A stretch of 64,000 nt of DNA from an uncultured bacterium (GCA_964392085.1 CAYMOV010000005.1:5343-69342); one strand, 5' to 3'. Shown: positions 8,828 to 59,659, counted from the stretch's first letter. Translations and numbers: made by a program. The notes: generated from the sequence alone by a model not told the origin.

Positions 8828-9012
8828 CCCGGCCCCCTTCACCGAATCCTCAACAGGACGGTTTGTCCTGGGTCCATGAAATGGGGGCCGCCCTCATTTC
8901 CCCGCGCGGGCCCTGCCCGCGGATGCCCAAAACAATGGTGAGGGGGCGGAAAATGAACCCCAACGACACAATGGCCCGGGTTGGGCGATCCCTGAATTTC
9001 CCATGCTCCAAG

Positions 9013-10911
9013 ATGCGCGGTCATTCCGAGGGAGGGGACGACTTGCCCGGCGTAACCGAAGGCGAAGATGGGAACGGCGCCGACGGGGAATCCGCATTTG
9101 CCGGGGGCGCATTAGGCCTTCCGGTTAAAGCGGTCCTGCTTTGCCTCCTCTTTTTATGGCCCGCCCTCCCGGCCCGCGCGGTCCTGGTCGCCTCCCGGAA
9201 CCTCCGGGTCGGTTCCTTGACGTTCGAGGGGAACGAGGCCTTTTCCGACGGGACCCTCCGGAAGGTCTGCCTCACCCAACCTTCCGGGCTCTTCCACAAG
9301 ACGGAATACCTTCCCGACGTCCTGGAAAAGGACCTGGTCCGCCTGGCCGATTTTTACCACCGACGTGGATTCCTCCAGGCGGGCGTGGAGGACAAGGAGG
9401 TCACGGTCTCGAAGGACGGCCGGAAGGCCGACCTGACCGTCTGGGTCTATGAGGGGCCCGAAAGCCGGATCGGCGCCATCCGGTTCGAGGGCATCCACGC
9501 CTTCACGGCGAAGAAGATTTTGGGGTTGTCCGGGTTGAAAACCGGTGAACCATTGGACCGGGACCAGGTGGAATCGGCCATCCGGAACCTGTCCCAGGCC
9601 TACCTTAATGAAGGTTACCTGGAAGCCGTGATCCTCCCCGAGAACCGGTGGGAACCGCCGAAGACAGACCCGGTGCTGGTCTTCAAGATCTCCGAGGGTC
9701 CCCTCTGCCGCCTTTGGGGCATCACCCTGTCGGGTCTCACCCGGTCCCGGGACTGGGTCGTGCGGAGGGAATTCAGGATCCGACCGGGCGAAGCGCTCAA
9801 GTGGAACCAGGTGGAAAAAGCCCAACAACGGCTCTACCTCACCGGAATCTTCCAAACCGTCTACGCGCGGCCGGTCACCGCGCCTTCCCCCGCACCGGAG
9901 GGGTCCCGCGTCCTGGCGCTGGAGGTCCGGGAAAACAAGCCGAAGGAACTCGACCTCAGCACCGGCTGGAGCACCGAGGAGCACCTCCGGGGCAAGGCCA
10001 CCTTCTCGAACATCAACCTGTTCGGGCGCGCCCGCCAGTTCACCGTCACGGCCACGGCCAGCCGCCTGCTCCAAAGGCTCGACGGGACCTACACCGTCCC
10101 CTGGACCCTCGGGGTGCCCTGGTTCACCAGCCTGAACCTTTTCGGCGAGATCCAGAACCAGCCGGGCTATTCCCTCCGCACCGGGGGCGGCCTCTTCTCC
10201 TTCGGCCGCCACCTGTCCTCGATCTCCCAGGTCCAACTGACCTACCGGCACGAGAACGCCTTCCTTTCCTCGGTGGTGGTGGTGCCGGCGCCCGACATCT
10301 CCCTGAACTTCATCCGGTCCTTCGGCCTTTCCCTCTTATTGGACGAACGGGACAACTTCGTGAGCACCCAGCGCGGCCTTTACCTCAACGCCTCCGCCGA
10401 GATGTCCGGGTCGTTCCTCCATGGGTCGGACACCTTCTTCAAGGCCACGGGGGCCTTCAAGTGGTTCCATCCCGTCACCTCCTCCACGGTCATCGGCACC
10501 GCGGCCCAGGTCGGTTGGGTCGGGAACTACCGGAGCCTGAACCCGATCCCCTTGAGCGAGCTCTTCTACGCCGGCGGGTCCAACGCCCTTCGGGGGTTCC
10601 CCTACCAGGGCGCGGGCCCGCTGGACCCGCAGCGCGTCCCCCTCGGCGGCCAGTTCGAGCTGGTGTTGAACGCCGCGGAACTGCGCCAGAGGGTCTGGAA
10701 ATGGTTGGGGGTCGTGGGGTTCTTCGACGCGGGCAACATCTTCCCCAACCTCGACAAGATCCGTTGGGGGGACATCCGCACCACCGGGGGCTGGGGCCTC
10801 CGCCTCACGACCAAGTTGGGCGTGCTCCGGGCGGACCAAGGGTTCATCGTGAACCCGCGCCCGGGCGAAAAGCGGCAGGTGATCTATTTGAACGTGGGGC
10901 AGGCGTTTTGA
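9013..10911 (+). CDS. tamA: Omp85-family outer membrane protein (TamA/BamA-like: POTRA domains plus a bacterial surface antigen D15 barrel)
   Basis: It has a signal-like hydrophobic stretch KAVLLCLLFLWPALPARA, POTRA-like repeats, and a C-terminal beta-barrel ending YLNVGQAF. The start is ambiguous: an ATG at 8824 is coupled to the tamB stop, an ATG lies at 9013, and a TTG at 9043 is preceded by a GGGAGGGG RBS. Confidence 0.8.
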   Translation: MRGHSEGGDDLPGVTEGEDGNGADGESAFAGGALGLPVKAVLLCLLFLWPALPARAVLVASRNLRVGSLTFEGNEAFSDGTLRKVCLTQPSGLFHKTEYLPDVLEKDLVRLADFYHRRGFLQAGVEDKEVTVSKDGRKADLTVWVYEGPESRIGAIRFEGIHAFTAKKILGLSGLKTGEPLDRDQVESAIRNLSQAYLNEGYLEAVILPENRWEPPKTDPVLVFKISEGPLCRLWGITLSGLTRSRDWVVRREFRIRPGEALKWNQVEKAQQRLYLTGIFQTVYARPVTAPSPAPEGSRVLALEVRENKPKELDLSTGWSTEEHLRGKATFSNINLFGRARQFTVTATASRLLQRLDGTYTVPWTLGVPWFTSLNLFGEIQNQPGYSLRTGGGLFSFGRHLSSISQVQLTYRHENAFLSSVVVVPAPDISLNFIRSFGLSLLLDERDNFVSTQRGLYLNASAEMSGSFLHGSDTFFKATGAFKWFHPVTSSTVIGTAAQVGWVGNYRSLNPIPLSELFYAGGSNALRGFPYQGAGPLDPQRVPLGGQFELVLNAAELRQRVWKWLGVVGFFDAGNIFPNLDKIRWGDIRTTGGWGLRLTTKLGVLRADQGFIVNPRPGEKRQVIYLNVGQAF

Positions 10912-15378: not shown

Positions 15379-17721
15379 TCAGGACCCCTCGATCACTAAC
15401 ACGCCCCGGGTGAGTTTCTCCGGGCCCTTGCGTACCACGTAATAGTGGATTCCCGGGGCCGCAGGTTTCCCTCCGGGGGATCGACCGTTCCAACGGACCC
15501 ATCCCCCGATTTCCATTTGGGTAAATACGGATTCGCCCGAAACCGTGTAAACGTCCAGTTCGGATCCCGGGGGCATGCACCATGCCTTCAGGGTCCCCCC
15601 AACCGCTTGGGAGGGGTTGTAGGGGTTGGGCCACACGTGAAGCGGTTGGACCGGGGTTGGGCTGGGGGGGATGGGGGTCACCGACCAGGTGGCCGTCGGG
15701 GTGTCCGTCCAGGTCATAGTCCAAGTGGCGGTGGGGGAATCGGTCGGGGTGTCCGAGGGTGAAGGGGTCGGGGTGAGGGTAGGGAAATCATCCACGACGA
15801 TGACCCCAGTTGGAGTGACGGTCCAGGTCGAGGTGAGGAGGGAGGTAAGAGTCGGGGTGAAGGTGGCCGTGGGGGTCGGGCTGGAGGTGGGCGTGGCGGC
15901 ACAGGAACGGACCACGAGGTTATCGAACCGGATCCGATTGATCCCTTGGATGAAATCGGCGTGAAATCCTACGCCCCCGGCCGGAAGGCTCATGTCGGTG
16001 AAATCGAAAAGGAGTGTCTCCCCCGAGCCAAAGTCCACGAAAGTCTGTTGCCGGGAACCCGACACCACCGTCCGGAAGTGGACCCAAGTCCCGGGGGGAT
16101 AAGCGGGGGTGGCCAATCCCGAACCGAAACCGACCCCATCCAGGTATCGGTACCCCTGGGTATCGGAAAACAACACCGCTTGCCAATGGGGGACCAGGTT
16201 CTCCGGGTTGGTGTTCATCAACACGCTGTAATAGTCCGCCACCGTCGGCGAGGTAATCGTCGCGCGGAAGGCCGAGCCGAAATCCCCATAGCCGTTATCC
16301 AGGTCCATCTCAGCGTCGAAATCGATGGTGTAATCCCGGCGGGACCAGCCCAGGAGCGAGTCCCCGGTGGGGGGCGACGTCACCTGTACAACGGGCCGTT
16401 GGTTGACCCCCAAGGGGGCGGACGCTGGGGCGCTGTTCCGGATGACCTGGGCGTTATCCGCGGCCGCGGGGCTTCCGATCGGGACGCCCGTTGCGGCGCC
16501 AAGGTAAGTCACGTTGGGATCGGAATAATAGGGGATATAGGATCCCGGCATGTAGGACATCAATGAAATGAACAACCCCGCCCCGGTGTTGATCTTGTAG
16601 CCGTAGTTATATCCGGACCCCGTGGGGATCCCCGCCGTCCCCCGGTCGTGGTTACAACCGTAGTTGTGGCCCAGTTCATGAGGGAACGCCACATCGGCCC
16701 AGGACGACAACACCACGGTCTGGTCACCCGGCATGTAGCCCACCCCCGCGATGGAGTTGTCGGACCGCCCCAGGAAAAGGCTCGCGTATTGCGCGCCATA
16801 GGTCGCCATCAGGCCGAACACCTCGTCCACATAGCCGTCGCCGTTGGCGGCGAATCGCCCAGGTCCAGGGGCAGGTTGCCCGAATCCGAATAGGGTGTTT
16901 CGGCGCAATAGACCAACCGGTCCTCGAGCCCGACCTGGCTGTTGTGCAGGGCCAAGTTCAGGACTCCCATGGCCAGGTCGATGACGGTCAGGATCCCCGG
17001 GGTCCCACCGGCGTAGGTCCTCGCGGTGGGGGTGTAGAGGATCAGGACTTGGTTGACCTTCAGGTTCTCGGCGTCCGGGCACATGCCGGAGGTGTCCTGT
17101 GGGACGACAGGCGGAAACCCCTCGGGGTTGTCGTAGGCCTCGGGCACGGCGGGCTCCCCCGGCCCCTCCGTTCCGCACTTGAACCGCGCGGACGGATCCT
17201 GGAGGAAGATCCGATGGACGCCTTCCCCCACATACCGGATTTGGAATCGTCCTCTCGTCGGATCAAAGACCGTGGCCGCGATCACCGGCCCCCGGGCGGC
17301 CAGGACCCACCAACCCCCATCCACCCCGTCGAGGGTTCCCGTCCAGACCACGCCTCCCCCGAGGGTCGGCCGCCGAAGGTCGCAGACCGCCCGGTAATCG
17401 GCTCCGACCAGGAGGTTCAGGGCCAGGGGCGGGGCTTCCCGAACGGGGACCAGGCCCGCCAGTTGACCGAGGAATTCGGGGGACACCCGCACGTACCGGG
17501 ATTGGAGGGCGGGGAGGTCAAGGGGCGGGACCTGGGCGGGTGGATCCACCGTGGGGAAAGCGGACGAAGGTGAGGGAGGCAAGGCGCCGGCAAAAAATGG
17601 TTCGCGCCCCGGGGGGGACAAGGGCCCACCCCAGGATCCCAACCACCGCAAACCATACCCGTCGTTTCGGTTCCATAGGTCCACTACACCATCCTACAGA
17701 ATAGGCATTCGGGGCATACAC
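15379..17721 (-). pseudogene. secreted metzincin (reprolysin/M12B-like) zinc metalloprotease with PT-rich linker and C-terminal sorting domain, split over three reading frames
   Basis: Frame C (17518..17721) encodes a plausible signal peptide, MEPKRRVWFAVVGILGWALVPPGA. Frame A (16809..17684) encodes the prodomain and the start of the catalytic domain, VLILYTPTARTYAGG...VYCAETPYSDSGN. Frame B (15379..~16860) continues ANGDGYVDEVFGLMATYGAQ...AFPHELGHNYGCNHD (HExxHxxGxxH), then SLMSY, a PT-rich linker, and VWPNPYNP...LVIEGS. The frame switches fall at a GGGG/CCCC run near 16850-16871 and a C4G7 run near 17600-17620. Confidence 0.6.
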
Positions 17722-17776
17722 TTGACCCCATCATACCCCGCGCCCCCCCATTCCGCCCCGTATGTAATGCATATTA

Positions 17777-17814
17777 AAAAAAAGGCCCGGCGCCCCCAAG
17801 GGGACGCCGGACCT
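17777..17814 (-). terminator. Rho-independent terminator of the 17835..19160 gene
   Basis: On the minus strand: ggtccggcgtcccc-ttg-ggggcgccgggcc followed by T8. Confidence 0.65.
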
Positions 17815-17834
17815 GGATTCAACCAACCGGGAAA

Positions 17835-19160
17835 TCAGCGGGCTTCGGCTTGCCCATCCGGATAGAAGAGTTTGTAGCTCCCGTCGCCCAGCAGCACCAT
17901 GACCTCGGTGATCCGGCCGTTGGCGTTCTCGGTGAACCGCGCGTCCGTGGCGCCGGACACCAGGAAGACCGGCGCGAAGGCCGGGGTGGCGCTCATGTCG
18001 TAGAGGAAGGCGTCGTTGGAGGCGCCGTAGATCTTGATGGCCCGGGTATTGTCGTGGCTCCAGAAAACCGTCCCGGAAGCCGAGCCCGAGGGGGCGGGGG
18101 CCGTCGCGGAATCCGGCTGGGTCACCGGATCAGCCGCGTCGCTGGCCGGGTAGTATTCCTTGTCCCGGTAGACATACACCACGTCCACCCGGGAGGGATC
18201 CTGCCACCACCAGTAGCCGTCGTTCCAGTAGCACCAACGGTCGAAGCTGTCGTCGTACCACCAATACCGGTCGCCGTAATAGCGGGTCCAGAAGCATTGG
18301 TCCCCGAGGTACCAGCCGTACCAGTTGTAACCCCACGGGTCGTTATAGTGGCAAAACCGGTTGCCGCCGTAATCGTGCCAGTAGTAGCGCCCCCGGACGT
18401 TTTCATCCCGGTTGTACCTTCCCACCTGGCCCAAGACCAAGCGGTTGTTCATGTAGACGTTCATGGACTTGGCGGCCGGCGGTCCGCCGGCGACGCGGGA
18501 CATCAGCGCCCTTCCGTCGGGTCCCCGTTGGGGCACCGCGACCCTCGATTCGGCCCGGGGGGTGCTCAACAGGTGGTCGCGCTCCCGGATCGGCGAGGGC
18601 CTTGGAACGCCCTGCAGGTGCGCCCGGTTCTGTTGATAGGTCCCAGGGTGGACGCCCGCCGGACGGCGGTATGAGTTGTCCCGTACCTGGTTCGACCGGT
18701 TTCCGGTCCTCGCGTCGTTCCCCAAACGAACCCGTGGGTTTTCCACGGGACGGGATTGCTGTCCGTTGTTCCCGGGACGGGCCTGCTGCCCGTTGGCCGC
18801 CGGGCGGACCCTTTGTCCCTGGACCCCGGCGTTTTGGCCGCCATTCGGGGCGACCCGGCCGATCAGGCCCGCGGGTTGTTCGCGTTGGGGCGCGGCCCTT
18901 TCCGTCCGCGATTGGGCGGCTCGGTGGGCCCGGACGGGCTGGTCCCCGGAAACCGTCCTGTCCACCCGGGTGTCGTCCCGGGTGGTCGACACGGTGTCGC
19001 GCGCCGGGGCATCCCCACGGTCATCGCTAGCCGAAGCCCGGTCGGGTCGGTCCACCCGGTCCGGACGGCTGTCTCCCGGGTCGTCCCGCCTGGCCAAAGC
19101 CGGAAGCGCGAGGGCAAACGCGAAAAAGGTGATGGCAAACAATTTGAGGTTCTGATTCAT
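17835..19160 (-). CDS. secreted hypothetical protein with an Arg/Asp/Gln-rich disordered region and an extremely Trp/Tyr-rich core
   Basis: Signal peptide MNQNLKLFAITFFAFALALPALA. Roughly 200 aa of low complexity follow. The aromatic core reads YYWHDYGGNRFCHYNDPWGYNWYGWYLGDQCFWTRYYGDRYWWYDDSFDRWCYWNDGYWWWQD and is followed by a ~100-aa beta-rich C-terminal domain. Confidence 0.7.
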   Translation of the reverse strand: MNQNLKLFAITFFAFALALPALARRDDPGDSRPDRVDRPDRASASDDRGDAPARDTVSTTRDDTRVDRTVSGDQPVRAHRAAQSRTERAAPQREQPAGLIGRVAPNGGQNAGVQGQRVRPAANGQQARPGNNGQQSRPVENPRVRLGNDARTGNRSNQVRDNSYRRPAGVHPGTYQQNRAHLQGVPRPSPIRERDHLLSTPRAESRVAVPQRGPDGRALMSRVAGGPPAAKSMNVYMNNRLVLGQVGRYNRDENVRGRYYWHDYGGNRFCHYNDPWGYNWYGWYLGDQCFWTRYYGDRYWWYDDSFDRWCYWNDGYWWWQDPSRVDVVYVYRDKEYYPASDAADPVTQPDSATAPAPSGSASGTVFWSHDNTRAIKIYGASNDAFLYDMSATPAFAPVFLVSGATDARFTENANGRITEVMVLLGDGSYKLFYPDGQAEAR

Positions 19161-19356
19161 GTCTATTCTCCCGATCCAATGGACTGCCTATAAGTTTAGA
19201 CGACAGGAAGCGCCTACGGTTCCAGTAAAAACGACTGAATAACCCCGCGCTTCCCTCCCCACGGTGATTTGACGAGGGCAAAGGACGGCGGGTGTCGCCC
19301 GGGAATGGCGCTAAAAACCGGTTATACCAACCACAAAGGGGGTTTTCATCCTCCGG

Positions 19357-19629
19357 CTAATGGCCCGACCCTGGGCTGAAAACGGGCGGGCGCGCTGGGG
19401 TCGAGACCGGGAAGACCGTATGGGGTTCGAAATGGAGATCCGATAACCGAACGACCAACCGGTAATCCCCCGGATGGGCCAGGTCCTCCACGAAGGCCCT
19501 GCGCCAAAGGTCGATGTCCAGGACCCGCACCTTCATCCCGCGAAACAAGGCCGTTTGCCCGACGAACCAGCGGCGCAATTCCTCCCGTCGAACCTGCGGG
19601 AGGGGTTCTTGGATATCCGGTTGGGCCAT
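19357..19629 (-). CDS. hypothetical protein
   Basis: About 90 aa, downstream of the PQQ-repeat gene on the same strand. The ATG at 19629 has a GAGGTG RBS, and a GTG at 19638 is also possible. No recognisable motif. Confidence 0.35.
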   Translation of the reverse strand: MAQPDIQEPLPQVRREELRRWFVGQTALFRGMKVRVLDIDLWRRAFVEDLAHPGDYRLVVRLSDLHFEPHTVFPVSTPARPPVFSPGSGH

Positions 19630-19707
19630 GGGAGACACCTCAGGCCGCCCATTCTACTCCCGGCCACGGCCTGACAAAAGATGGTTCTAGAAGGCCTTTT
19701 GTCGGGT

Positions 19708-22700
19708 TTATCGGAGCAGGACCAAAGGCAGGACATACCGGCGGACTGGAGTCGTCAACACCAGGTAATACAGGCCGTCCGAGAGCGGCGCGCCCCGCCG
19801 GTCCCGGGGATCCAAGGGGACGGACCATTCCCCCGCCTTGATATTCGTAAAGGACCACTCCGCGATTTTCCGGTAGGCCGTCGTGAAGACCGCGACGCGC
19901 ACCCAAGCCTGGGGACTTTCCCAGTTGGCCGAAAGGGTCAGGGGTCCCGTTCCCCGCCAGGGGTTTGGAAAGAGGACCGGGGGCTCCGGACCCACGCCCG
20001 CCGTCCCGGTCGGGGTCGGCGACGGGGACCCGGTCCAGGTCGGAGTGGCCGTCACGGAAGCCGTCGGCGTGCCCATAGGACTCGGTGACGGGGACGCAGT
20101 CTCGGTCGCGCTCGGTGTAACGGTCCAGGTGGACGACGGTGTTTCCGTCCACGAGGCCGTCGGGGTGGCGGTCCGGGTCGGCGGGGGCGGCGTTGCCGAA
20201 GGCGTAGGGCTTGAGGTGAGGGACGCCGTCCCGGTTGGAGAAGGCGTTGAAGTGTCGACCGGGGGCGCCGTCGGGCTAGGCGTCAACGTTGACGAATGGG
20301 TTGGGGTTGTTGTTGTAGTCGGCGTCCCACTCGCCGTCCCAGTCGGCGTTAAGGAAGCTGTCCCGCTCGCCGTGGGGCTTGGGGACGGGGACGCAGTCTC
20401 GGTCGCGCTTGGAGTCCGGGAGGGCGACGCCGTCGGCGTCCCGCTTGGGCTCGGGGAGGCGGTTGAACTGGCGGTCGCTGAAGCCGTGGGCGTAGCCGAC
20501 GGGGTCGGCGTAGTCGAATCCGTCGAGGTGCGGGTCGGCGAGGCGGTGGCGGTACTGGTCGCCGTCGCCGAAGCCGTGGCCGTCCGGGTCGGGGTCGCCG
20601 TAAACGTCGCGGATGGTGTCGGGGTGGCCGTGAGGGTCGAGGAATAGGTGGCCGTGAAGGTGGCTGTCCCAGTCGGCGTTGATGAAGCTGTCCCGCTCGC
20701 CGTGGGGCTCGGGGACGGTGACGGAGTCACGGTCGCACTTGGAGTCTGGGAGGGCGACGCCGTCGGCGTCCCGCTTGGGGTGGAGGTCCTGGTCGCCGAG
20801 GCCGTGGCCGTCCAGGTTCGGGTCGCCGTCAACGTCGCCGAGGAGGTCGGGGTGGCGGTGGGAGTCGAGGAAAAGGTAGCCGTGAAAGTACCCGTCCCAG
20901 TCGGCGTTAACGAAGCCGTCCCACTCGCCGTGGGGCTCGGGGACGGTGACGGAGTCACGGTCGCGCTTGGAGTCCGGGAGGGCGACGCCGTCGGCGTCCC
21001 GCTTGGGGTCGGGGACCGGGTGGACGTCGCCGTGGCCGTCAAGGTAGCCGTGGAGGTTCTGGTCGGGGTGGCGGTGGGCGTAGACGTCCAGGTCGGCGTG
21101 GCCCCCCCGATCAAGCCGTACACCACCAGCTGGCCGGCGGCCGGGACATAGACCTTCCCGTTGACGATGCTGGGCGGCGTGAACTTCACGTTGGCCGCCA
21201 CGGCGCTGTCCCGGGCCGCGTTTTGGGAGCTGTTGTAGAGCTCGGTGGCCAGGTTCGTGGCGTCGTAGGCGTGCAGGACCGCGGGGGTGCCGGGTTGGAT
21301 CGCCCAAACGATGCCGTTCGTCGTTCCGTTGGAGGACACGCTGGGAACGCAACCCGGGTAGGCGTAGGTGGCCGAGGTCTGGGAGGAGGCCGTGGTGTTG
21401 TAAAGGCCGTTCGCCAGGCTGAAGGCCCGGAGCACCTGCCCCGACATGCCCCAATAGACGAAGCCGTTGAAGATCGCGGGGTTGGTGAATCCCGCGTTGG
21501 TGGCGGCCGTCCCGACGTGGAATTCCTGGACGTCGTTGTCCGTCGCGGCGTTGTAATGTCCCATGTTGTCCCGGTCCACCAGGTACACCTCCCCCGTCTT
21601 GGCGCCTCCTGTCATGAGGTGGGGATGGGCCGCGCTGCCGTAGGAATCCGGCAAAAGCACGCCTCCGGTGGAGCCCAAGTCCTGGTCGGTGTTGCTGAGG
21701 GTGCCCTGGTTCGAGGGCGTGAAGTAGTCCGCCGGGGTGAGGGCCGTGACCCCGGCCGTCAGTTTGAGGAAGCTGTCGCCGTAGTCCCGCCCCCCCGTGT
21801 TGGCGTCGAAAGTGCCGTTCGCGGTGAGGACAAACAGGTTTCCTGAGGCATCCACCATCGGGGCCCCGCCGCTGTTCCAGAGGGACGCCTCGCTCCCGTC
21901 GGGCGCCACGTTGTAGACGATGGTCTGTTGGCTGATGTCCGAGGCGTTGTAGCCGATGATCCAGCCCTGGTAGGTGCCCCAGTTGTTCAGGTCACAGTGG
22001 GAGGTCCAGGAGGTGTAGATCACCCCGTTGGACTCGACCAATCCGCATCGTTCCTTGTAGGCCCGTGCATTGAAGGTATCCGTCGTCCCTCCCTGGCCCG
22101 TCCCCGGCACGCTGGCCTGGACCGTGGTGGGGCCGTTCGCCGCCTCGGCCCCGGAGGAGAGGTCGAGCGCGTGCAGGACCTGGTAGAACTGCGTCACGGG
22201 GCCCGCGGTCACCTGCTTGATCATCCCCACCAGGTAGATCTTCCCCTTCGCCGGGTCGATATAAGGCGTGTCGGTGATGCCGATCTCCGGGGTGATCTGG
22301 GTGCAATTCGCCACGTCGGCCAGGGCCACCGTGGTGACCCCGGCGGCCGCGTTCAGGAAACTGACCTGCCAAAGCGGCGCTTGGGGGGAATCGGCGTCGA
22401 AGGCGTAGACGCTGTCGTGCTCCGTGCAGACATAGACCACGTTGTGGTTGCCCTTGCCCAAAATCGCCTGGTTGGGGACGTAAAGGGGTTGGCCGTAAAT
22501 CTGGCCGTCGACCGCGTCGGAATACAGCTTGCCGAAGGTCGCTTGGTTGACGACCGACGTCGAGAGGATCGTCTCGTTGGGGTTGAGTCCCGTGCGGGAA
22601 TCGTCGTTATGGTAGGACAATAGGGGGGTCTGGCCCCAGGCGGCGCCCACGAGGGTGACCGAGAGGGCGAGGATCAAGTTGTGGGCAAGCCGCGCAGGAC

Positions 22701-22716
22701 GGAATAAGGGCGCCAA
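19708..22716 (-). CDS. secreted PQQ-like beta-propeller protein with triplicated Pro/Thr/Ser-rich repeats and a C-terminal sorting (T9SS/Por-type) domain
   Basis: Signal peptide MAPLFRPARLAHNLILALSVTLVGAAWG. The ~490-aa N-terminal domain has repeated PQQ-type blades (VYAFDADS, GKIYLVG, GNLFVLT, GEVYLVD, GFVYWGMSG, GKVYVPAAGQ). Three ~48-aa repeats TPSGTPTASPSRTPSATVTPSPSPSPTASGTASLTPTGTG follow. The C-terminus reads VLFPNPWRGTGPLTLS...LYYLVLTT. Confidence 0.85.
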   Translation of the reverse strand: MAPLFRPARLAHNLILALSVTLVGAAWGQTPLLSYHNDDSRTGLNPNETILSTSVVNQATFGKLYSDAVDGQIYGQPLYVPNQAILGKGNHNVVYVCTEHDSVYAFDADSPQAPLWQVSFLNAAAGVTTVALADVANCTQITPEIGITDTPYIDPAKGKIYLVGMIKQVTAGPVTQFYQVLHALDLSSGAEAANGPTTVQASVPGTGQGGTTDTFNARAYKERCGLVESNGVIYTSWTSHCDLNNWGTYQGWIIGYNASDISQQTIVYNVAPDGSEASLWNSGGAPMVDASGNLFVLTANGTFDANTGGRDYGDSFLKLTAGVTALTPADYFTPSNQGTLSNTDQDLGSTGGVLLPDSYGSAAHPHLMTGGAKTGEVYLVDRDNMGHYNAATDNDVQEFHVGTAATNAGFTNPAIFNGFVYWGMSGQVLRAFSLANGLYNTTASSQTSATYAYPGCVPSVSSNGTTNGIVWAIQPGTPAVLHAYDATNLATELYNSSQNAARDSAVAANVKFTPPSIVNGKVYVPAAGQLVVYGLIGGATPTWTSTPTATPTRTSTATLTATATSTRSPTPSGTPTASPSRTPSATVTPSPSPSPTASGTASLTPTGTGTFTATFSSTPTATPTSSATLTATRTWTATASATRTSTPSGTPTASPSQTPSATVTPSPSPSPTASGTASSTPTGTATFTATYSSTLTATPTPSATFTATPTRTATASATATSTATASPTRTSTDSTTPTPSATPTASATASSTASPSPSGTPTASPSRTPSATETASPSPSPTASGTASLTPTGTASGTPTTTTTPTHSSTLTPSPTAPPVDTSTPSPTGTASLTSSPTPSATPPPPTRTATPTASWTETPSSTWTVTPSATETASPSPSPMGTPTASVTATPTWTGSPSPTPTGTAGVGPEPPVLFPNPWRGTGPLTLSANWESPQAWVRVAVFTTAYRKIAEWSFTNIKAGEWSVPLDPRDRRGAPLSDGLYYLVLTTPVRRYVLPLVLLR
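20040..21120. repeat. tandem DNA repeats encoding the PT-rich linker of the 1002-aa gene
   Basis: Near-identical blocks at about 20348, 20688 and 20918, for example cgccgtggggctcggggacggtgacggagtcacggtcgc...gggagggcgacgccgtcggcgtcccgcttgggg. They generate the long alternate-frame ORFs in the track. Confidence 0.6.
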
Positions 22717-29267: not shown

Positions 29268-29396
29268 AGGGCGCTCCTTGGGGAGTGGATCCGGCCGGAT
29301 GGCCGACGGACCGCATTTTAACACGCCCCGCCCCGGCGGCAGGGGGCAAACGCTTGCACTCTTTCGGGGCCCCAACCCCTTTCGCCCCGCCTTACA

Positions 29397-32327
29397 ATGT
29401 CGCGGTTGCCCCTCGAACCCCGATTCAAGGAATCCCCCGTGACGAAGACCCTCCTCATCCTTTTGACCCTCGCGATCTTCCCCCGCTTGTCCCTGGGCGC
29501 CGTTGGGTCCGCCTCGCCCCGTGAACGCCTGTCGTTGGACAAAGGTTGGTTCTTCGCCCTGGGCCACGCCTACGACCCCACGAAGGACTTCGGCTTCGAC
29601 ACCGACTATTTCTCCACGATCACCAAGGCCGGCTACGGCAGCGGCCCCGTGACTTCCAGCTTCGACGACCGGGGCTGGCGCTCGGTGGACGTGCCCCACG
29701 ATTGGGCGGCGGAGCTTCCCTTCTCGCCCGAGGGAAGCCGCAGCCACGGCTACAAGGCCCTGGGCCGGAAGTTCCCGGGCGCCAGCGTGGGTTGGTACCG
29801 CCGTCATTTCTTCATCTCCGAGAAGGACCTGGGCCGCCGCGTCAGCGTGGTGTTCGACGGGGTCCAGCGGGACGCCGTGGTCTGGGTCAACGGCTTTTAC
29901 CTGGGCCGGGAAACCAGCGGCTACAGCGGCTTCCGTTATGACGTGTCCGAACTCCTGAATTACGGCGGCGACAACGTGGTGGTGGTTCGGGCCGACGTCA
30001 CGACGGAGGAAGGCTGGTTCTACGAGGGCGCCGGGATCTACCGCCATACCTGGCTCGAGAAGACCGACCCCCTCCACGTGGCCCCCGACGGCGTCTTCGT
30101 TGAATCCGAGGTGAAGGGCGATTCGGCCCGCCTCTCGACCGAGGCCACCGTCCGAAACGACGGCGCCACCCCGGTTTCGTACGAAGTCACCCAGGACGTC
30201 CGGGACGAGGACGGCCGGTCGGTCGCCACCGGCAAGGTGGGCGGCCTGAAACTGGCCCCCGGCGAAGAGGGGAAATCCCTGGGTTCCCTCCAGGTGTCCA
30301 AGGCCCTGCTTTGGTCCCTCGAATCCCCTCATTTATATACGTTGTTCACGGTTGTCCAATCCGGGTCCAAGGTCGTGGACCGGGTGGTCACGACCTTCGG
30401 CATCCGAACCCTGGGGTTCGACCCCGTCCAGGGGTTCCTCCTCAATGGGAAGCACGTCGAGCTCAAGGGCACCTGCGTCCACCAGGACTTCGCCGGGGTG
30501 GGGGCCGCCCTGCCGGACGCCCTGCAGGACTACCGGATCCGGGCCCTGAAGTCCTTCGGCTGCAACGCCTACCGCTGTTCCCACAACCCCCCGACCCCGG
30601 AGTTGCTGGACGCCTGCGACCGGCTCGGCATGCTGGTATTGGACGAGAATCGCCTCATGGGTGTCACCCCCGAGCTGACCGGACGCCTGGAGTGGCTGGT
30701 CAAGCGCGACCGCAACCACCCCTGCGTCTTCGCCTGGTCCCTGGGCAACGAGGAATGGACCATCGAGGGCAACGTGAGGGGCGAGCGCATCGGCGCGCTC
30801 ATGCAGGCCATCGTGAAGCGCCTGGACCCCACCCGGGGGATCACCGCGGCCGTCAGCGGCGGCTGGGGCAAGGGCCTGTCGGAGGTCTTGGAGGTCATGG
30901 GCTACAACTACTACACCCACGGCGACCTGGACGGCCACCACAAGAGCCATCCCCAACAACCCTCCTTCGGGAGCGAGGAATCCTCCACCCACTCGACCCG
31001 GGGCTGTTACGAGACCGTCCAGGCGGCCTGCCACCTGGCCCCCGCGGACCGGGCCGGGGAATTCAGCGCCGAGACATCCTGGAAGCACTACCTGGCCCGT
31101 CCCTTCCTGGGCGGCCTGTTCTATTGGACCGGGTTCGACTACCGGGGGGAACCCACGCCCTTCGACTGGCCGGCCATCGGCTCCCAATACGGCATCCTGG
31201 ACCTCTGCGGCTTCCCGAAGGACCAGGCCTATTACCTGAAGGCCTGGTGGACCGACGAACCCGTCCTGCACCTGTCGCCGCATTGGAACTGGAAGGGCCG
31301 TGAGGGGAAGCCCGTGACCGTCTGGGCCGATTCGAACTGCGCGGCGGTGGAATTGTTCCTGAACGGGAGGAGTCAGGGGCGCAAGGACATGCCCCTGAAC
31401 TCGCACCTGGAATGGGTGGTCCCTTATGAGCCGGGCGTCCTGTCCGCCGAGGGGTTCAAGGACGGCAAGCCGACGATGGAAACAAAGGTCGAGACCGCCG
31501 GCCCACCCGCCTCCCTCGCCCTCTCGGCCGACCGGATGGACCCGAAGGCCGATTCAGTGGACGTCTCGGTGGTGACGGTGAGCGCCCTGGACGCGAAGGG
31601 CGTCGCGAACCCCCTGGCGGGTGCGGAAGCCACTTTCTCGCTGGAAGGCCCCGGCAAGATCATCGGCGTGGGTAACGGCGACCCTTCCTGCCATGAGCCG
31701 GACCAGGTCGTGGACCAGGTGACTTCCCAGGACATCAAGAACCTGAAGTTCAAGAGGGTCGTGGGATGGGACGGGCTATCCGAGGTGGCGCCCGGGTTCA
31801 ACGACCAGGCTTGGCCCGAGGGCTTCTCGTTCCGGGGCAGGATCGACGGCAAGGCGCGGAACGTCCCCATGACGATGGTGATCCGGGGCGAATTCACCCT
31901 GGCCCCCTATGGGCCGGACACCGTCCTCACCTTCTACCCCAAGGCCATCGGGGAGGAACAGGACCTTTACATCAACGGCAAGCTCATCGTGAAGGGCCTG
32001 AAGAACGGCGACAAGACCCAAGCCTACAATCTGGAACACTCGATCCTCCACCCCGGCCGCAACACCTACGCCATGGTGGGGACGCCCCTGAGGATGCGCT
32101 GGGACTGGGACTACGGCAACACCCACCCGGGCACGATCGGGGCCTTCACGCCCCACGGGCCCTGGAAGCGCAGTCTCTTCAACGGTTTGGCCCAGGTATT
32201 GGTCCAGACGCAGGGGACGCCGGGGGAGATCATCCTGAAGGCCGAGGCGAAGGGCCTGGCCCCCGCGGTCTTGAAGTTGGAGTCGAAATCGGCGAACCTG
32301 CCGGTGGCCGCCCCCTCGGCACCCTAA
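29397..32327 (+). CDS. glycoside hydrolase family 2 protein (beta-galactosidase/beta-mannosidase-like), secreted
   Basis: Signal peptide LLILLTLAIFPRLSLGA. It has a GH2 sugar-binding domain, NHPCVFAWSLGNEEW (acid/base region), a TIM barrel, and C-terminal beta-sandwich domains. Confidence 0.9.
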   Translation: MSRLPLEPRFKESPVTKTLLILLTLAIFPRLSLGAVGSASPRERLSLDKGWFFALGHAYDPTKDFGFDTDYFSTITKAGYGSGPVTSSFDDRGWRSVDVPHDWAAELPFSPEGSRSHGYKALGRKFPGASVGWYRRHFFISEKDLGRRVSVVFDGVQRDAVVWVNGFYLGRETSGYSGFRYDVSELLNYGGDNVVVVRADVTTEEGWFYEGAGIYRHTWLEKTDPLHVAPDGVFVESEVKGDSARLSTEATVRNDGATPVSYEVTQDVRDEDGRSVATGKVGGLKLAPGEEGKSLGSLQVSKALLWSLESPHLYTLFTVVQSGSKVVDRVVTTFGIRTLGFDPVQGFLLNGKHVELKGTCVHQDFAGVGAALPDALQDYRIRALKSFGCNAYRCSHNPPTPELLDACDRLGMLVLDENRLMGVTPELTGRLEWLVKRDRNHPCVFAWSLGNEEWTIEGNVRGERIGALMQAIVKRLDPTRGITAAVSGGWGKGLSEVLEVMGYNYYTHGDLDGHHKSHPQQPSFGSEESSTHSTRGCYETVQAACHLAPADRAGEFSAETSWKHYLARPFLGGLFYWTGFDYRGEPTPFDWPAIGSQYGILDLCGFPKDQAYYLKAWWTDEPVLHLSPHWNWKGREGKPVTVWADSNCAAVELFLNGRSQGRKDMPLNSHLEWVVPYEPGVLSAEGFKDGKPTMETKVETAGPPASLALSADRMDPKADSVDVSVVTVSALDAKGVANPLAGAEATFSLEGPGKIIGVGNGDPSCHEPDQVVDQVTSQDIKNLKFKRVVGWDGLSEVAPGFNDQAWPEGFSFRGRIDGKARNVPMTMVIRGEFTLAPYGPDTVLTFYPKAIGEEQDLYINGKLIVKGLKNGDKTQAYNLEHSILHPGRNTYAMVGTPLRMRWDWDYGNTHPGTIGAFTPHGPWKRSLFNGLAQVLVQTQGTPGEIILKAEAKGLAPAVLKLESKSANLPVAAPSAP

Positions 32328-35059: not shown

Positions 35060-37399
35060 TCACGGGCACTTCTCCGCGTAGAAGGAGAAGTTCCAGTCCT
35101 GCGCGCCAGCCGGGCTGAACGTTGCCGGGAACGCCTGGTAGCTGTACCACTCGAACTGCCCCACCCCCGTCGGGGTGTTGGCCACCTGCATGTCGATCCC
35201 CGCGGCGGTGTTGTTGGACATGAAGGCGATCCAGTAGGTCCCGGTCGCGAGGGTCCCCGTGTTGGGGATGTCCACGGTGTTCCAACCGGTCACCGGGACC
35301 TGGTCGCCGGATTGGGACAACAACGCGGAGGGGCTCCCCGAGGCGTCGGTATAAAGGGCCATCCGGATCAATCCCGTGGGAGTGTTGGGGAGGTACACGT
35401 GGAGCTTGGTCACCACGCTGGACGTGCCCAGGGTGAACTTCGTGGCCAGTATGTTCCCCCCCGAGTAGTTGCTGGCGCTCCCCACGGGCGAGGTGTTGCC
35501 GAAGGTCGTGGGCGTGCACCCCGGGATCGGCGTCTCCGTCCGGGTAGGCGAGGGGGTGGAGGTGAAGGTCGGGGTGAAGGTCCAGGTGACCGTCGGGACC
35601 GGTGTGGGCGTCGCGGGCCCCACGCAGTAGTCCGCGTAAAAGGCGAAGGCCCAGTCGGTACCGCCGTAGCTGGAGAAGGGACTCGGGAAAGACCCCGTGA
35701 AGGACATGCCCTGGTACTGGCCGTCCCCGGTGGTCCCGTAATCCAGGGACATATCGATGCTGTTATCCGCCACCAGGGCGATCCAGTAGGTGCCCGGGTC
35801 CAGGGGCGAAGTGGTGGGGACCACCACGTTGTTCCACCCCACGACGGAGGTTTGGGGGTTCGAGGCGGCGATCAGGGTCCCCGGTTGGGAGGCGCCGTTG
35901 GAGTAGAGCGCCATGCGGATGTTCGCCCCGGCATTGGAGGGGATGTAGGCGTGGAGTTTGTTGACCTGTCCTGAGGTGGTCAGGGTGAAATGGGTGGCGA
36001 GGGCGTTACCCGGCGAGAAGCCGCTTCCCACGCTCCCCCCCTGGAAATTCTTTCCGAATGAGAAAAGGGTGCAGGCCGGGAGCGGCGTGAAAGTAAACGT
36101 CGCGGTGGGGGTGGAGGTAAAGGTCGGCGTCGGCGTCCAGGTGGCGGTCCGGACCGGCGTGGGCGTCCCGGCCCCCACGCAGTAGTCCGCGTAGAAGCTG
36201 AAGCTCCAGTCGGTGGCGCCCGAGCCGGTGAAGGGGCTTGGGAAGGAGCCGAACGAGGCGGACTGGTACTGCCCGTCCCCCGTCGTTTGGTTGTCCAGGG
36301 ACAGGTCGATCGGGTGGTCCGCCTCGAGCGCGATCCAATAGGTGCCGGGAGCGAGGGCAACGGTGTTGGGGATGTCCACGTTGTTCCACCCGTTCACGGC
36401 CGACTGGCTGGACGAGGCCGCCAGCACCGTCCCGGGTTGGGACGCCACGTCGTTGTAGATCGCCATCTCGAGGTTCGTCCCGGGGGTCGGGGCCGAGTGG
36501 ATATAGGCGTGCAAAACCGTCGCCTGGCCGACGGCGGTCAGGGTGAAACGCGAGGCGAAGATGTTCGGGTTGTTGTAGACGCCATTGGCGGCCCCGATCC
36601 AGTTCTTGCCGAAGGAGAAGGTGGAGCAACCGGGGAGCGGGGTCTGGGTGAAGGTGTGGGTGAAGGTCGGCGTGAAGGTCGGGGTGGGGGTCCAGGTGTC
36701 GGTGGGCACCGGGGTATCGGTGGCGGCCCCCACGCAATAGTCGGCGTAGGCCGAGAAGGCCCAGGTGTTTGCGGTGCCGCCCGAGAACGTCGGGGGGAAA
36801 GGGCCAAAGGCCATGCCGGAATACTGTCCGTCGCCCGTGGAACCGGTGTCGAAGGCCAGGCCGAGGTCGATATCGAAAGCCACGGCGATCCAGTAGGTCC
36901 CGGCGGGCAACGCCCCGGTATCCGGCACGTCCAGGGTGTTCCAGCCGACGGTGGTCACCCTCACGCTGGACTGGGTCAGCAGGTTGCCCGGTGCGGAACC
37001 GTTGTTGTCGTAGAGGGCCATCCGGACGCTGGAGCCCGAGGTGGTGGCGTAAACGTGGAGTTTGGTGACCTGGCCGGAGGTGGAAAGGGTGTAGCGCGAG
37101 GCGAAAAGGTTGCCCGACGAGAAGACCGAGCTGGAGGCACCCAGGAAGTTCTTGCCGAAGGTGAAGGGCGAGGCGCAAAGGGGCGTCTCGGTGATGGTTG
37201 GGGTGGCCGTGGGGGAACCAGGCGTCGGTGTCCGGGTGTTGGTGCTGGTCATGGTGGGCGTGCCCGTCAAGGGGTTGACGGTGAGGGTGTTCGTCGGGGG
37301 TTCCTGCCCGGGGGCGGTGGGCGAGGATTTTTTCTTGCAGCCCACGTAGGCCAAGGCCACAAGGGTCAACAGGATGGCCGTCAGGCGGAAGCGTTTCAT
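35060..37399 (-). CDS. lipoprotein with four tandem ~190-aa repeat domains separated by TPTPTFT linkers
   Basis: The ATG at 37399 gives MKRFRLTAILLTLVALAYVGC (lipobox). Each repeat follows the pattern CxxFxFGKNxxGxxxxxxxxNxxAxxFTLTTSGQVxKLHAYxxS...MALYxxxxSxPGxLxAxS...VxGWNxVxxPxTxxLxxGTYWIA...TGDGQYxxxSF...W-FxFYADYC. The ORF track's extra N-terminus (to 37495) is probably untranslated. Confidence 0.8.
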   Translation of the reverse strand: MKRFRLTAILLTLVALAYVGCKKKSSPTAPGQEPPTNTLTVNPLTGTPTMTSTNTRTPTPGSPTATPTITETPLCASPFTFGKNFLGASSSVFSSGNLFASRYTLSTSGQVTKLHVYATTSGSSVRMALYDNNGSAPGNLLTQSSVRVTTVGWNTLDVPDTGALPAGTYWIAVAFDIDLGLAFDTGSTGDGQYSGMAFGPFPPTFSGGTANTWAFSAYADYCVGAATDTPVPTDTWTPTPTFTPTFTHTFTQTPLPGCSTFSFGKNWIGAANGVYNNPNIFASRFTLTAVGQATVLHAYIHSAPTPGTNLEMAIYNDVASQPGTVLAASSSQSAVNGWNNVDIPNTVALAPGTYWIALEADHPIDLSLDNQTTGDGQYQSASFGSFPSPFTGSGATDWSFSFYADYCVGAGTPTPVRTATWTPTPTFTSTPTATFTFTPLPACTLFSFGKNFQGGSVGSGFSPGNALATHFTLTTSGQVNKLHAYIPSNAGANIRMALYSNGASQPGTLIAASNPQTSVVGWNNVVVPTTSPLDPGTYWIALVADNSIDMSLDYGTTGDGQYQGMSFTGSFPSPFSSYGGTDWAFAFYADYCVGPATPTPVPTVTWTFTPTFTSTPSPTRTETPIPGCTPTTFGNTSPVGSASNYSGGNILATKFTLGTSSVVTKLHVYLPNTPTGLIRMALYTDASGSPSALLSQSGDQVPVTGWNTVDIPNTGTLATGTYWIAFMSNNTAAGIDMQVANTPTGVGQFEWYSYQAFPATFSPAGAQDWNFSFYAEKCP

Positions 37400-37565
37400 G
37401 GTCGGCTCCGGGAAAGGGGTTATGAAGTTCCCGAAGGTTAGCGGAAGACCACGACAAAAAACCAGGGGGGGACGGTGGAAATCCCACGGATTCACGCCGA
37501 TTTAACCGTGGGATCCCGGCCAGGGGTGGGGGATTCCCGTGGGCGCTCCGGAAGGCTTCCGACCT

Positions 37566-44798: not shown

Positions 44799-45749
44799 TC
44801 AAGGCGCCGGCTCGGTGATGGTATTGGACAAAAGCGTGACCTCGTCGATCTCGGAGAACGCCCGGCCCACCAACACGGCGCCGGTGTTCAGCGTGACCTG
44901 GTTGTAAGCCATGATCGTCCCCACGAAGGAGGTCGTGGTGTCCAGGGCGCACATGCTGCCCACCTGCCAAAAGACGTTGGTGGCCTTGGCGCCCCCGGCC
45001 AGGAGGACCTGACGGCCCGGGGTCGTGGTGAGGGTGGAGGCGATCTGGAAGATGAAGACCGCGTTCGGGTCGCCCTGGCCGTCAAGGGTGAGGTCCCCCG
45101 AGGAGACCTCCAGGGATCCGGTGGATTTGTAGAGGCCCGGAGCCAGCGTCTGGCCCCCGATGTTCCCCGCCAACACGGTGGGATTGGTCCGGCCGGCGGC
45201 GTCGTTATAGGCGATCGTCAGGTCCGCCATGGCGTTGGCCGCGGCGGTGTCGGTCACGTGGTAGACCCCGCCGCAACTCACGACGGGCGCCCCCACGACC
45301 GCGCTGCCGGGCGAAAGGCCCAGGTCGCCGCAAAGCGTGGTGGGGCCGCTGTTGGTGATCGTGGTGTAACCCAGGACCACGAACCCCACCGCGGAACCGA
45401 GGTTCACCGGGAGTTGGGACGTTTGGGATGTCGGGGTGGATGTGACGATCAGGGTCGCGGTCGCGGTCGTCGTGTCGGTTGTGGAGGGGGTCGGAGTGGG
45501 CGTCCCGGTGGGGGTTGAAGTCCACAGGGAGGTGGAGGTCTTCGACGGGGTGGGGGTCTGGGTCCGTGCGGGGGTGGCGGTGGGGCTTGAAGTCCAAGTC
45601 GCGGTCGCGCCGAGGGTCCTCGTCGCGGTCACTGTCGCGGCGAGCGGCCCCACCGGGGGGCTCGGGGAGTCGATTTCACGGCGACAGCCGACGAAAAGGA
45701 CGGCCGGAATGAGCGCAAGGAGGGATAAACGGCCGATGTTTTTTTTCAC
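44799..45749 (-). CDS. DUF3494 (ice-binding-like family) lipoprotein, paralog 1
   Basis: GTG start with a GGAGAC RBS, lipobox LFVGC, and a TPT-rich linker. The DUF3494 core reads [18 protein letters not shown]...AYNDAAGRT...LTLDGQGDPNAVFIFQ...FWQVGS...TLNTGAVLVGRAF...NTIT. Confidence 0.85.
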   Translation of the reverse strand: MKKNIGRLSLLALIPAVLFVGCRREIDSPSPPVGPLAATVTATRTLGATATWTSSPTATPARTQTPTPSKTSTSLWTSTPTGTPTPTPSTTDTTTATATLIVTSTPTSQTSQLPVNLGSAVGFVVLGYTTITNSGPTTLCGDLGLSPGSAVVGAPVVSCGGVYHVTDTAAANAMADLTIAYNDAAGRTNPTVLAGNIGGQTLAPGLYKSTGSLEVSSGDLTLDGQGDPNAVFIFQIASTLTTTPGRQVLLAGGAKATNVFWQVGSMCALDTTTSFVGTIMAYNQVTLNTGAVLVGRAFSEIDEVTLLSNTITEPAP

Positions 45750-45807
45750 GGGGAGTCTCCGGGGAATCTTTCGACAAGCCGATTTGACTTTTAGGACATC
45801 CGTAAGA

Positions 45808-45821
45808 GCAAGGAACGTGCC
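45808..45821 (-). promoter_or_regulatory. sigma-54-type promoter (-24 GGCACG / -12 TTGC) upstream of DUF3494 paralog 1
   Basis: The minus strand reads gGGCACGttccTTGCtctta, with 4-nt spacing as in TGGCACG-N4-TTGCW. It lies about 59 nt upstream of the start codon. Confidence 0.5.
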
Positions 45822-46041
45822 CCGCCCCCCGGTTTTTTATATAAACGTTTTGTGGCAGGTCACCATTATTCCGGAGCCCCCCGGCACCCCTGTTTTCAAT
45901 TCCCGATTTGGTTCGAGACGACGCCTCCCGGACTCGGGCTTCGTTCAAGGCGGTGCCCGTGGACCATCCGGGCCGGATCAAAATGGTAGCCATTTCCCCG
46001 AATTGATTCCCTGGGGCGGGGCTGATCGGCGCCCTCCGGGT

Positions 46042-46083
46042 AAAAAAAGAGCGGCGGACCCGGTTCATTCCAGGTCCGCCGCT
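46042..46083 (-). terminator. Rho-independent terminator of DUF3494 paralog 2
   Basis: gcggcggacc...ggtccgccgc stem with T7 on the minus strand. Confidence 0.6.
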
Positions 46084-46110
46084 TCTAACGACCCACCTCA
46101 ATCCGGTCCC

Positions 46111-47100: not shown

Positions 47101-47145
47101 CGTCACCGCTCCTAGGTTCTTTTGTAGTCGAGGGGATGGGTAAGA

Positions 47146-59658: not shown

Positions 59659-59659
59659 T

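Follow-up and report, generated by a model that had tools for sequence, protein, structure and literature searches.

We analysed a 64,000-nucleotide (nt) stretch of DNA from an uncultured bacterium of soil or peat origin (GCA_964392085.1, CAYMOV010000005.1:5343-69342), hereafter called the window, and in particular the region between positions 15379 and 22716, in which all genes lie on the minus strand. This region would hold two cargo genes of one kind: an intact gene for a 1002-amino-acid (aa) propeller protein, and a gene for a metzincin protease that appears to be broken now. Each cargo would consist of a globular extracellular module that follows a Sec signal peptide and is joined, by a flexible tether rich in Pro, Thr and Ser, to a terminal seven-stranded beta-sandwich of ~90 aa. 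With good confidence, the two terminal domains are divergent members of the superfamily that contains the type A sorting domains of type IX secretion systems (T9SS) and the FlgD_ig domains, and we think it rather likely that a T9SS handles them. This sorting reading is based on the homology of the tails, their fold, their strictly terminal position and the kinds of cargo that carry the nearest tails.

The gene for the 1002-aa exported protein occupies positions 19708..22716. Its Sec-type signal peptide (MAPLFRPARLAHNLILALSVTLVGAAWG, cut before Q; 22633..22716) was judged by eye and displays a positive n-region, a 14-residue hydrophobic core and an A-x-G site; in the AlphaFold2 (AF2) model the N-terminus forms a helix (residues 7-26) followed by a low-confidence stretch. 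Next come an eight-bladed beta-propeller of BamB/PQQ-like fold (residues ~29-538; 21103..22632), recognised with AF2 and Foldseek, a 374-aa Pro/Thr/Ser-rich linker (residues 539-912; 19981..21102) and a 90-aa C-terminal beta-sandwich (19711..19980) that starts with VLFPNPWRG, ends with LVLLR, and was classified, on the basis of the profile described below and the AF2 model, as a divergent type-A-like, FlgD_ig-like sorting domain. The tail of the metzincin, VWPNPYNPSQ…VLVIEGS, comprises 87 aa (15382..15642) and is a more divergent member of the same superfamily. The Pro/Thr (PT) linkers that a preliminary description of this DNA had placed ahead of both tails are indeed present: the 374-aa linker consists for ~70% of P+T+S (0.64-0.78 in 50-aa blocks) and the 87-aa metzincin linker (15643..15903) for 63%. 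Both tails lie at the extreme C-terminus of their protein; the signal peptide of the metzincin is out of frame.

The locus was also found, at 99.92-99.97% identity and with zero gaps, in the assembled sequences L001, L002, L003, L085 and L086, which represent four distinct contigs (L002 and L085 share one). These matches come from different samples (ENA ERZ27245408, ERZ27245399 and ERZ27245400; Logan SRR8464962), so that an assembly accident confined to one sample does not explain the locus. Other assemblies gave an identical call of the 1002-aa product (P0001), and an identical product also bears a JGI source tag.

To place the terminal domains we used a tail profile from which the two window sequences had been left out. 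The propeller tail matched this leave-out profile with 62 bits (E = 7.7e-19) over positions 3-91 of 92, and the metzincin tail gave a weaker match of 18.4 bits (E = 3.6e-5). These were the only matches among the 392 open reading frames (ORFs) of the window, both ending at the stop codon, and a PNP-motif scan followed by the profile scan of all ORFs revealed no further tail in the window. The two tails resemble each other weakly (pairwise BLASTP E = 4e-4 over 40 aa). At the sequence level, homology to type A T9SS tails is well supported indirectly, via intermediates. Thus, eight of ten related tails tested exceeded the curated cut-off of TIGR04183 (23 bits), with matches spanning positions 1-71 of 72, and in an 18-member tail alignment 13 members matched TIGR04183, 11 PF18962 and 11 FlgD_ig (E <= 0.01). 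The tails of the PT-linker propeller homologues share the consensus (V/I/L)-Y-P-N-P … V … (I/V)-F-T-x-(S/A)-F-R-K-V … G … L-A-N-G-L-Y-Y … L-K-L-L.

Structural comparisons point in the same direction. Searched against the PDB, the family profile retrieved the PorU tail 6za2 (E = 5.6e-6), the T9SS sorting domains 8glj_D and 8glk_D, and PorZ (5m11); it also found FlgD Ig-like domains, which ranked below the tails of PorU and PorZ. The AlphaFold model of the propeller tail, the one of the two tails that was modelled, has seven strands arranged as an immunoglobulin (Ig)-like sandwich (predicted local distance difference test, pLDDT, 95.4), and in the PDB it comes closest to the PorZ (5m11) and PorU (6za2) tails (TMq 0.68-0.72), with FlgD next. 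A seven-strand Ig-like fold located at the C-terminus is a hallmark of type A T9SS tails (PMC10202324, PMC4804311).

The tail family as a whole is large. Against 1.84 billion representative proteins the profile gave 178,637 matches at E <= 1e-3 and 3,535 at E <= 1e-10. The 150 best matches listed form two classes: single-copy members, whose match extends over the full profile and finishes at the last residue of the protein or a few residues from it, and giant proteins with 8-15 internal tandem copies. The nearest long proteins with a terminal copy contain glycoside hydrolase (GH) domains of families GH5, GH9, GH16, GH18 and GH43, pectinesterase, expansin, carbohydrate-binding modules (CBM5/6/35), or propellers of the NHL/SBBP or sortilin-like types; the cargo of the nearest tails is extracellular and polymer-degrading, plant-polymer hydrolases in particular. 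We conclude with good confidence that the tails behave like terminal sorting tags. Matches to the NCBIfam model 'T9SS_sortase' were considered as possible PorU/PorZ-like machinery and discarded, as they are explained by the tail itself or by tandem Ig copies.

The second cargo gene (15379..17676) codes for a Reprolysin-like metzincin of the M12B type, as judged from Pfam and frame analysis, and contains two frameshifts. Matches to Reprolysin_5 (28.6 bits, cut-off 27) and Reprolysin_4 (27.2 bits, cut-off 22) are just above the cut-offs. The zinc motif HELGHNYGCNHD (HExxHxxGxxHD; 16645..16680) is complete, with H333, E334, G336, H337, G340, H343 and D344 invariant in metzincin alignment A4, so that both the zinc site and the family hidden Markov model (HMM) place the protein among the M12B reprolysin-like enzymes. 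Immediately ahead of the zinc-binding helix, 11 residues present in its homologues are deleted. The closest homologue is 35% identical, and no intact close orthologue was found in the protein database or the JGI metagenomes, the relatives there showing at most 35% identity.

The sole plausible start codon of the metzincin gene is the ATG at 17676. It opens a signal peptide (MEPKRRVWFAVVGILGWALVPPG; 17607..17676) that, according to three-frame translation, is in a frame different from that of the next ORF, and the same translation places frameshift 1 at or shortly after a C7 run (17607-17619). Frameshift 2 (16857..16860) lies in the catalytic domain, between …NLPLDLG and RFAANGDGY…, and equals a 1-nt deletion. 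It was located with tblastn: homologue P0125 aligns with residues 36-257 in one frame up to 16860 and with residues 259-415 in another frame from 16857, and P0126 and P0127 show the same break. Alignment A4 is contiguous across this point (…NLPLDLG followed by RFAANGDGYVDEV…), and the DNA there, CTGGGCGATTCG, contains neither a homopolymer nor a slippery heptamer. Hence, no continuous frame runs through the signal peptide and the catalytic domain, the two being separated or interrupted by the frame changes, and the C-terminal ORF spans 15379..17178. Gene callers split the gene into a 291-aa product and a 476-aa product; the latter has no signal peptide and is missing one half of its catalytic domain. 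In the 291-aa fragment the stop codon overlaps an ATG of the next frame (TGATG, 16809-16813, minus strand) and so mimics a translationally coupled pair, which explains why gene callers give two genes instead of a pseudogene.

Both frame changes were reproduced in the five assemblies, which differ only by single-nucleotide polymorphisms (SNPs) and show zero gaps. Around frameshift 1, four sequences agree in their frame layout, and one SNP that falls in the C run leaves its length unchanged; the DNA at frameshift 2 is identical in the window, L001 and L002. The presence of two frameshifts across independent assemblies indicates that the metzincin gene is probably a recently inactivated pseudogene in this population. 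Frameshift 1 could represent a phase-variable 'off' state at the C run, but this would not rescue frameshift 2. Programmed frameshifting was rejected, as two separate shifts are involved and the second has no slippery motif. Of the metzincin described previously, the enzyme class, linker and tail hold, but there is no single intact ORF and the catalytic domain is split over two frames.

The propeller was modelled with a pLDDT of 84.9 and a predicted template modelling score (pTM) of 0.86. Its best Foldseek matches are BamB, tetrathionate hydrolase and pyrroloquinoline quinone (PQQ)-dependent methanol and sorbose dehydrogenases (TMq 0.45-0.53, 12-14% identity), and the eight-bladed fold of PQQ-type proteins is thus present in the model. 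At E <= 1, no Pfam or NCBIfam family matched the 1002-aa protein apart from a sub-threshold FlgD_ig match on the tail; in particular, the PQQ repeat families (PF01011, PF13360 and similar) gave no match, and PQQ-repeat Pfam matches were found in one distant propeller homologue only (P0014). The name 'PQQ-propeller' given to this protein before therefore describes its predicted PQQ/BamB-like fold and not an enzyme; it has no HMM support, and the protein is not a demonstrated quinoprotein. With the metzincin frameshifted twice and the propeller lacking a demonstrated enzymatic identity, to call the region a 'cluster of secreted enzymes' was an overstatement.

The propeller belongs to a very large family, with at least 7975 proteins at E <= 1e-3 (8000 candidates examined), which is spread over soil and peat metagenome-assembled genomes (MAGs) of Acidobacteriota, Verrucomicrobiota, Planctomycetota, Armatimonadota and Eremiobacterota and in which many residues are invariant, among them EHD, SHCD and two cysteines. 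What comes after the propeller differs by lineage: it is TIGR03437 in dozens of the closest matches, and in others TIG or FG-GAP, or chitobiase-C, CBM3 or malectin. A PT linker plus tail is present in 23 of 123 retrieved sequences (120 listed matches and three cluster members, two of them exact duplicates). Because the family carries TIGR03437 as an alternative terminal module, the propeller looks like a cargo whose terminal module is swapped between lineages. Among 185,579 species-representative genomes the best match to the propeller was found in a MAG of candidate division FCPU426 (60% identity).

The linker of the 1002-aa protein grew through recent internal duplication. Tandem Repeats Finder reported a 228-nt unit present in 2.1 copies with 87% matches (20564-21045). 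The repeated core is 38 aa (114 nt) long, with consensus PSGTPTASPS[R/Q]TPSAT[V/E]T[P/A]SPSPSPTASGTAS[L/S]TPTGT, and occurs three times: copy 1 (PSGTPTASPSRTPSATVTPSPSPSPTASGTASLTPTGT) at 20893..21006, copy 2, within the 228-nt tandem unit, at 20665..20778, and copy 3 at 20335..20448. Pairwise DNA identities are 92-94% (copy 1 is 93.9% identical to copies 2 and 3, and copy 3 is 92.1-93.9% identical to the other two), and where codons differ, synonymous changes are no rarer than non-synonymous changes (5 versus 2, 2 and 4). Two cores lie in a 76-aa tandem unit, and the third, which belongs to a more diverged copy of the repeat, follows 110 aa further on (330 nt from copy 2). The duplication claimed earlier is therefore clearly visible in the DNA, and the three copies stand; their length, put at ~48 aa, and their strictly tandem arrangement do not. 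In propeller homologues with the same tail the linkers range from 48 to 585 aa, with a P/T/S fraction of 0.43-0.75.

Two metagenome contigs (L083, whose sample bears the label WOOD18, and L084, part of a 315-kb contig) encode a Reprolysin-like protease of 1260-1271 aa with the same tail, which adjoins the propeller gene or lies at most 7 kb from it. This arrangement shows that the protease-propeller pairing recurs in relatives, the window protease itself being at most 35% identical to any protein found. The tails on these contigs are closer to the consensus, and the protease there also has Big_7 and NHL-type domains. The two contigs, on which the regions concerned are L083 6105-13396 and L084 1-12562, have a G+C content of about 0.55, and L083 contains at least two further ORFs with the tail.

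Genes for BamA and TamB are present in the window, which indicates that the host has an outer membrane. The BamA gene (8953-10911, plus strand) encodes a short protein of 652 aa with few POTRA domains. A search of 5.8 billion proteins gave just three relatives with at least 50% identity to this BamA (50-54%), followed by two at 35-37%, one of them labelled only 'bacterium'. Such isolation marks the host as a member of a rarely sampled deep lineage. The aldolases of L087 and L004, compared for the same purpose, turned out to be of different families.

Several results weigh against the view that a T9SS handles the two tails. Neither TIGR04183 nor PF18962 (Por_Secre_tail) matched either protein or either isolated tail, even at E <= 10, so that the HMM check proposed for these C-termini was negative. 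The metzincin tail scored 21.9 bits with CHU_C (PF13585; cut-off 27; profile positions 27-75 of 86) and E = 2e-3, which is sub-threshold, with the PorZ-tail model; the type B sorting domain TIGR04131 was not reported for the window tails, which also stay below the CHU_C cut-off. The best direct Pfam match of the propeller tail is FlgD_ig (21.4-21.6 bits, cut-off 27). As no T9SS model outscores FlgD_ig and CHU_C on the window tails, sequence scores by themselves do not part a sorting signal from a generic Ig-like domain. The tail profile also matched giant proteins of 1100-4900 aa with 7-15 internal tandem copies (P0250-P0273), in which the match ends before the final strand; the same fold is therefore used elsewhere as a repeated structural module and is not exclusively a terminal signal. 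No PorU-like sortase was present among nine of the long proteins with the nearest tails, these nine being glycoside hydrolases and propellers. The FCPU426 MAG encodes a propeller copy of 561 aa that lacks the linker as well as the tail, and the tail was absent from all 79 retrieved GTDB loci with a propeller homologue. No SprA, PorV, PorU, PorZ or GldKLMN was seen in the annotated parts of ~74 kb; these parts, which cover the window partially, comprise the Pfam lists of L001 (window ~5,000-26,300) and L087 (from ~53,000 to a point ~10 kb beyond the right end) and ten larger ORFs elsewhere. Finally, T9SS tails are restricted to Bacteroidota according to one review (PMC10202324), and the T9SS and its tails to the Fibrobacteres-Chlorobi-Bacteroidetes (FCB) superphylum according to another review (PMC12398890), while comparisons of BamA and of the best propeller matches do not demonstrate that the host belongs to Bacteroidota or the FCB group, its BamA being at most 30% identical to that of any named phylum (Nitrospiria, Elusimicrobiota).

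The terminal domains might instead be ordinary FlgD_ig-type Ig-like modules, serving for example adhesion, carbohydrate binding or spacing, on proteins that leave the cell by Sec and a general route; no dedicated sorting system would then read them, and the organism would have no T9SS. The direct FlgD_ig match, the solved FlgD structures among the best profile and fold matches, the proteins with internal tandem copies, the T9SS genes missing from the annotated parts and a host that, as far as can be told, is outside any T9SS-bearing phylum all speak for this explanation. We nevertheless hold it to be fairly unlikely, because the listed single-copy members are terminal and keep the final strand (…LKLLvL) that is missing from the internal copies, because the domain follows a PT linker on many unrelated hydrolases, which is the pattern of a sorting tag, and because related tails pass the curated type A model full-length and the PorU and PorZ tails stand above FlgD in both the profile and the fold searches. 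Another explanation accepts the tail as a true signal but has it read by non-canonical machinery, such as a diverged or reduced translocon or another way of anchoring, in a deep FCPU426-like lineage outside the FCB group. This would agree with tails that fall below the curated T9SS cut-offs and have their own subfamily signature (FT-x-S/A-F-R-K-V … L-A-N-G-L-Y-Y … L-K-L-L), with the extreme isolation of the host BamA, and with the FCPU426 MAG as best genome match of the propeller; nor did we find a paper that connects FCPU426 with T9SS, or a useful one on its link to the FCB group. There is, however, no positive evidence for alternative machinery, the end-to-end fit of related tails to TIGR04183 argues for the same receptor logic, and the taxonomic placement is itself uncertain, so that we judge this explanation to be quite improbable.

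As to the metzincin, the frameshifts might be assembly or sequencing artefacts, or programmed frameshifting or slippage on the C7 run might overcome them, in which case an intact secreted enzyme would be made. Frameshift 1 is indeed located at or near homopolymers (C7, G4, T6) typical of phase-variable genes, both halves are coding-like in composition and free of in-frame internal stops, and the ATG of the second ORF overlaps the TGA stop of the first. Against this stand the identical frames without gaps in five assemblies despite SNPs, one of them in the C run, the position of frameshift 2 in a sequence that offers no slippage site, and the fact that a product started from the internal ATG would be without its signal peptide and would have lost the N-terminal half of its catalytic domain. 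Production of an intact metzincin is therefore, in our estimate, very unlikely.

Returning to sorting by a T9SS, the route of the 1002-aa protein would be as follows. The protein would pass the inner membrane via Sec, a T9SS-like translocon at the outer membrane would recognise the terminal domain, and the protein would reach the cell surface or the medium, the long and probably O-glycosylated tether keeping it off the cell. The metzincin would have had the same design, with frameshift 1 parting the signal peptide from the rest and frameshift 2 splitting the catalytic domain. The secretion and surface-attachment route dependent on the C-terminal domain that had been proposed is thus upheld in part: relatives, profile and fold of the tails speak for Por/T9SS-type domains, but the curated models do not recognise the window tails themselves and T9SS genes were not seen in the annotated parts.

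In the order of transcription, the region consists of the 1002-aa ORF (22716→19708), a 90-aa ORF (~19629→19357), a 441-aa ORF (19160→17835), a hairpin and the metzincin region (17676→15379); an assimilatory sulfite/nitrite-reductase-type gene comes next, just beyond 15379-22716. The 90-aa ORF (19357..19629, minus strand) is putative; it was called as a gene in L001, L002 and L003, its coordinates are mapped from L001 9532-9804, and no Pfam family matched it. The 441-aa protein (17835..19160, minus strand) would be exported and has no tail. It has a signal peptide and Arg/Asp-rich and Gln/Asn-rich low-complexity sequence as well as a striking Trp/Tyr-rich stretch (…YYWHDYGGNRFCHYNDPWGYNWYGWYLGDQCFWTRYYGDRYWWYDDSFDRWCYWNDGYWWWQDP…), is identical in three assemblies, and gave nothing at E <= 1 in Pfam and NCBIfam scans. 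Directly after its gene lies a strong intrinsic-terminator-like hairpin (17783..17814, minus strand; 14-bp stem with 11 G-C pairs, followed by a T run), which sets the 441-aa gene apart from that of the metzincin. Scanned in full against Rfam, the window gave no match.

Other features of the window, which has a G+C content of 63%, deserve mention. A family-2 glycoside hydrolase (29322-32324, plus strand), which is 1001 aa long and has the N-terminal, TIM-barrel and C5 domains of GH2, carries no tail, which means that not every large hydrolase here carries one. Five tandem paralogous lipoprotein-like genes (44799-50423, minus strand) encode a signal peptide ending in a G-C lipobox and an Ice_binding-like domain (PF11999; E = 4e-58 for the one copy tested); in three of the five a Thr/Pro-rich linker precedes this domain at the N-terminal side, and in the other two it is short or almost absent. 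In these lipoproteins the PT tether is thus N-terminal, after the lipid anchor, and not ahead of a C-terminal tail. A further lipoprotein-like protein of 811 aa (35060-37495, minus strand) consists of four ~170-aa repeats with short TPTPT linkers between them, and has no family match except a sub-threshold one to DUF2141. At the right end, 61594-63998 (minus strand) and continuing into L087 3837-10885, there is an ATPase operon in N-ATPase gene order (beta, epsilon-like, AtpQ/ATPase_gene1, AtpR, a, c, b, alpha, gamma) with an unusually long alpha subunit of 607 aa. Directly downstream of it lies a low-GC island (58366-61099, minus strand; 0.51-0.52 versus 0.63 for the window) with genes for a Na+/H+ exchanger and a ClC-type channel, which may be a horizontally acquired ion-homeostasis module.

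A broader proposal seems doubtful to us: in a deep and almost unsampled lineage, FCPU426-like and not part of the recognised FCB group, extracellular proteins would be tagged with a diverged type-A-like tail. If true, type IX secretion would be wider than reviews state, or a T9SS-type signal would be read by different machinery. If the tails are functional sorting signals, a rare candidate lineage would join the users of tail-directed outer-membrane export. The subfamily signature escapes the current curated models, and annotation pipelines would therefore leave such cargo unlabelled. The PT-linker and tail architecture is by itself routine, and the frameshifts of the protease mean that the 'cluster' is in part decaying. 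The most useful by-products of the analysis are the subfamily tail profile and a pointer to the very large propeller family, which is huge in soil bacteria, uncharacterised, repeatedly fused to export, anchor or carbohydrate-binding modules, and hence a reasonable target for biochemistry.

Compared with known systems, the window tails are most like the type A T9SS sorting domains of Porphyromonas gingivalis RgpB, PorZ and PorU and of Flavobacterium johnsoniae RemA. They share with these a length of ~70-100 aa, the extreme C-terminal position, here on putatively Sec-exported proteins, the seven-stranded Ig-like sandwich seen in the model of the propeller tail, and attachment to diverse hydrolases, as well as (Y/F/W)PNP at the first strand, G-x-Y-(Y/F) near the end and a hydrophobic last strand. 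Related tails pass the curated cut-off, whereas both window copies are below every one. The usual 'iyD-x-x-G-r-x-V' strand is replaced by FT-x-SFRKV, the PT linkers ahead of the window tails are very long, and here the host is not demonstrated to belong to Bacteroidota or the FCB group, with no T9SS core gene seen in the annotated parts. The FlgD Ig-like domain (PF13860) shares its fold superfamily with these tails: its score on the propeller tail is comparable and likewise below threshold, that on several related tails is strong (best E = 1.4e-9), and FlgD structures are among the top matches. In FlgD, however, the domain is an internal part of a flagellar hook-capping protein, whereas in the window it is terminal and follows a linker on extracellular cargo.

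The metzincin shares HExxHxxGxxHD and a conserved Met-turn region with the Reprolysin-like M12B metzincins (Reprolysin_4/_5), which include T9SS-dependent metalloproteases of Bacteroidota; it differs from them by its two frameshifts, by the 11-residue deletion before the HExxH helix and by its distance even from the closest homologue (35% identity). The propeller has the fold of BamB, PQQ dehydrogenases and tetrathionate hydrolase (Foldseek probability 1.0), and one of its homologues is named 'pyrrolo-quinoline quinone' by NCBI; its family nevertheless differs from these proteins by the low identity (12-14%), by its own invariant residues (EHD, SHCD and two Cys) and by fusion instead to the export and anchor modules TIGR03437, TIG, CBM3 and malectin. 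The TIGR03437 'Solibacter C-terminal domain' proteins of Acidobacteriota, finally, contain the same propeller family joined to another terminal domain without a PT linker.

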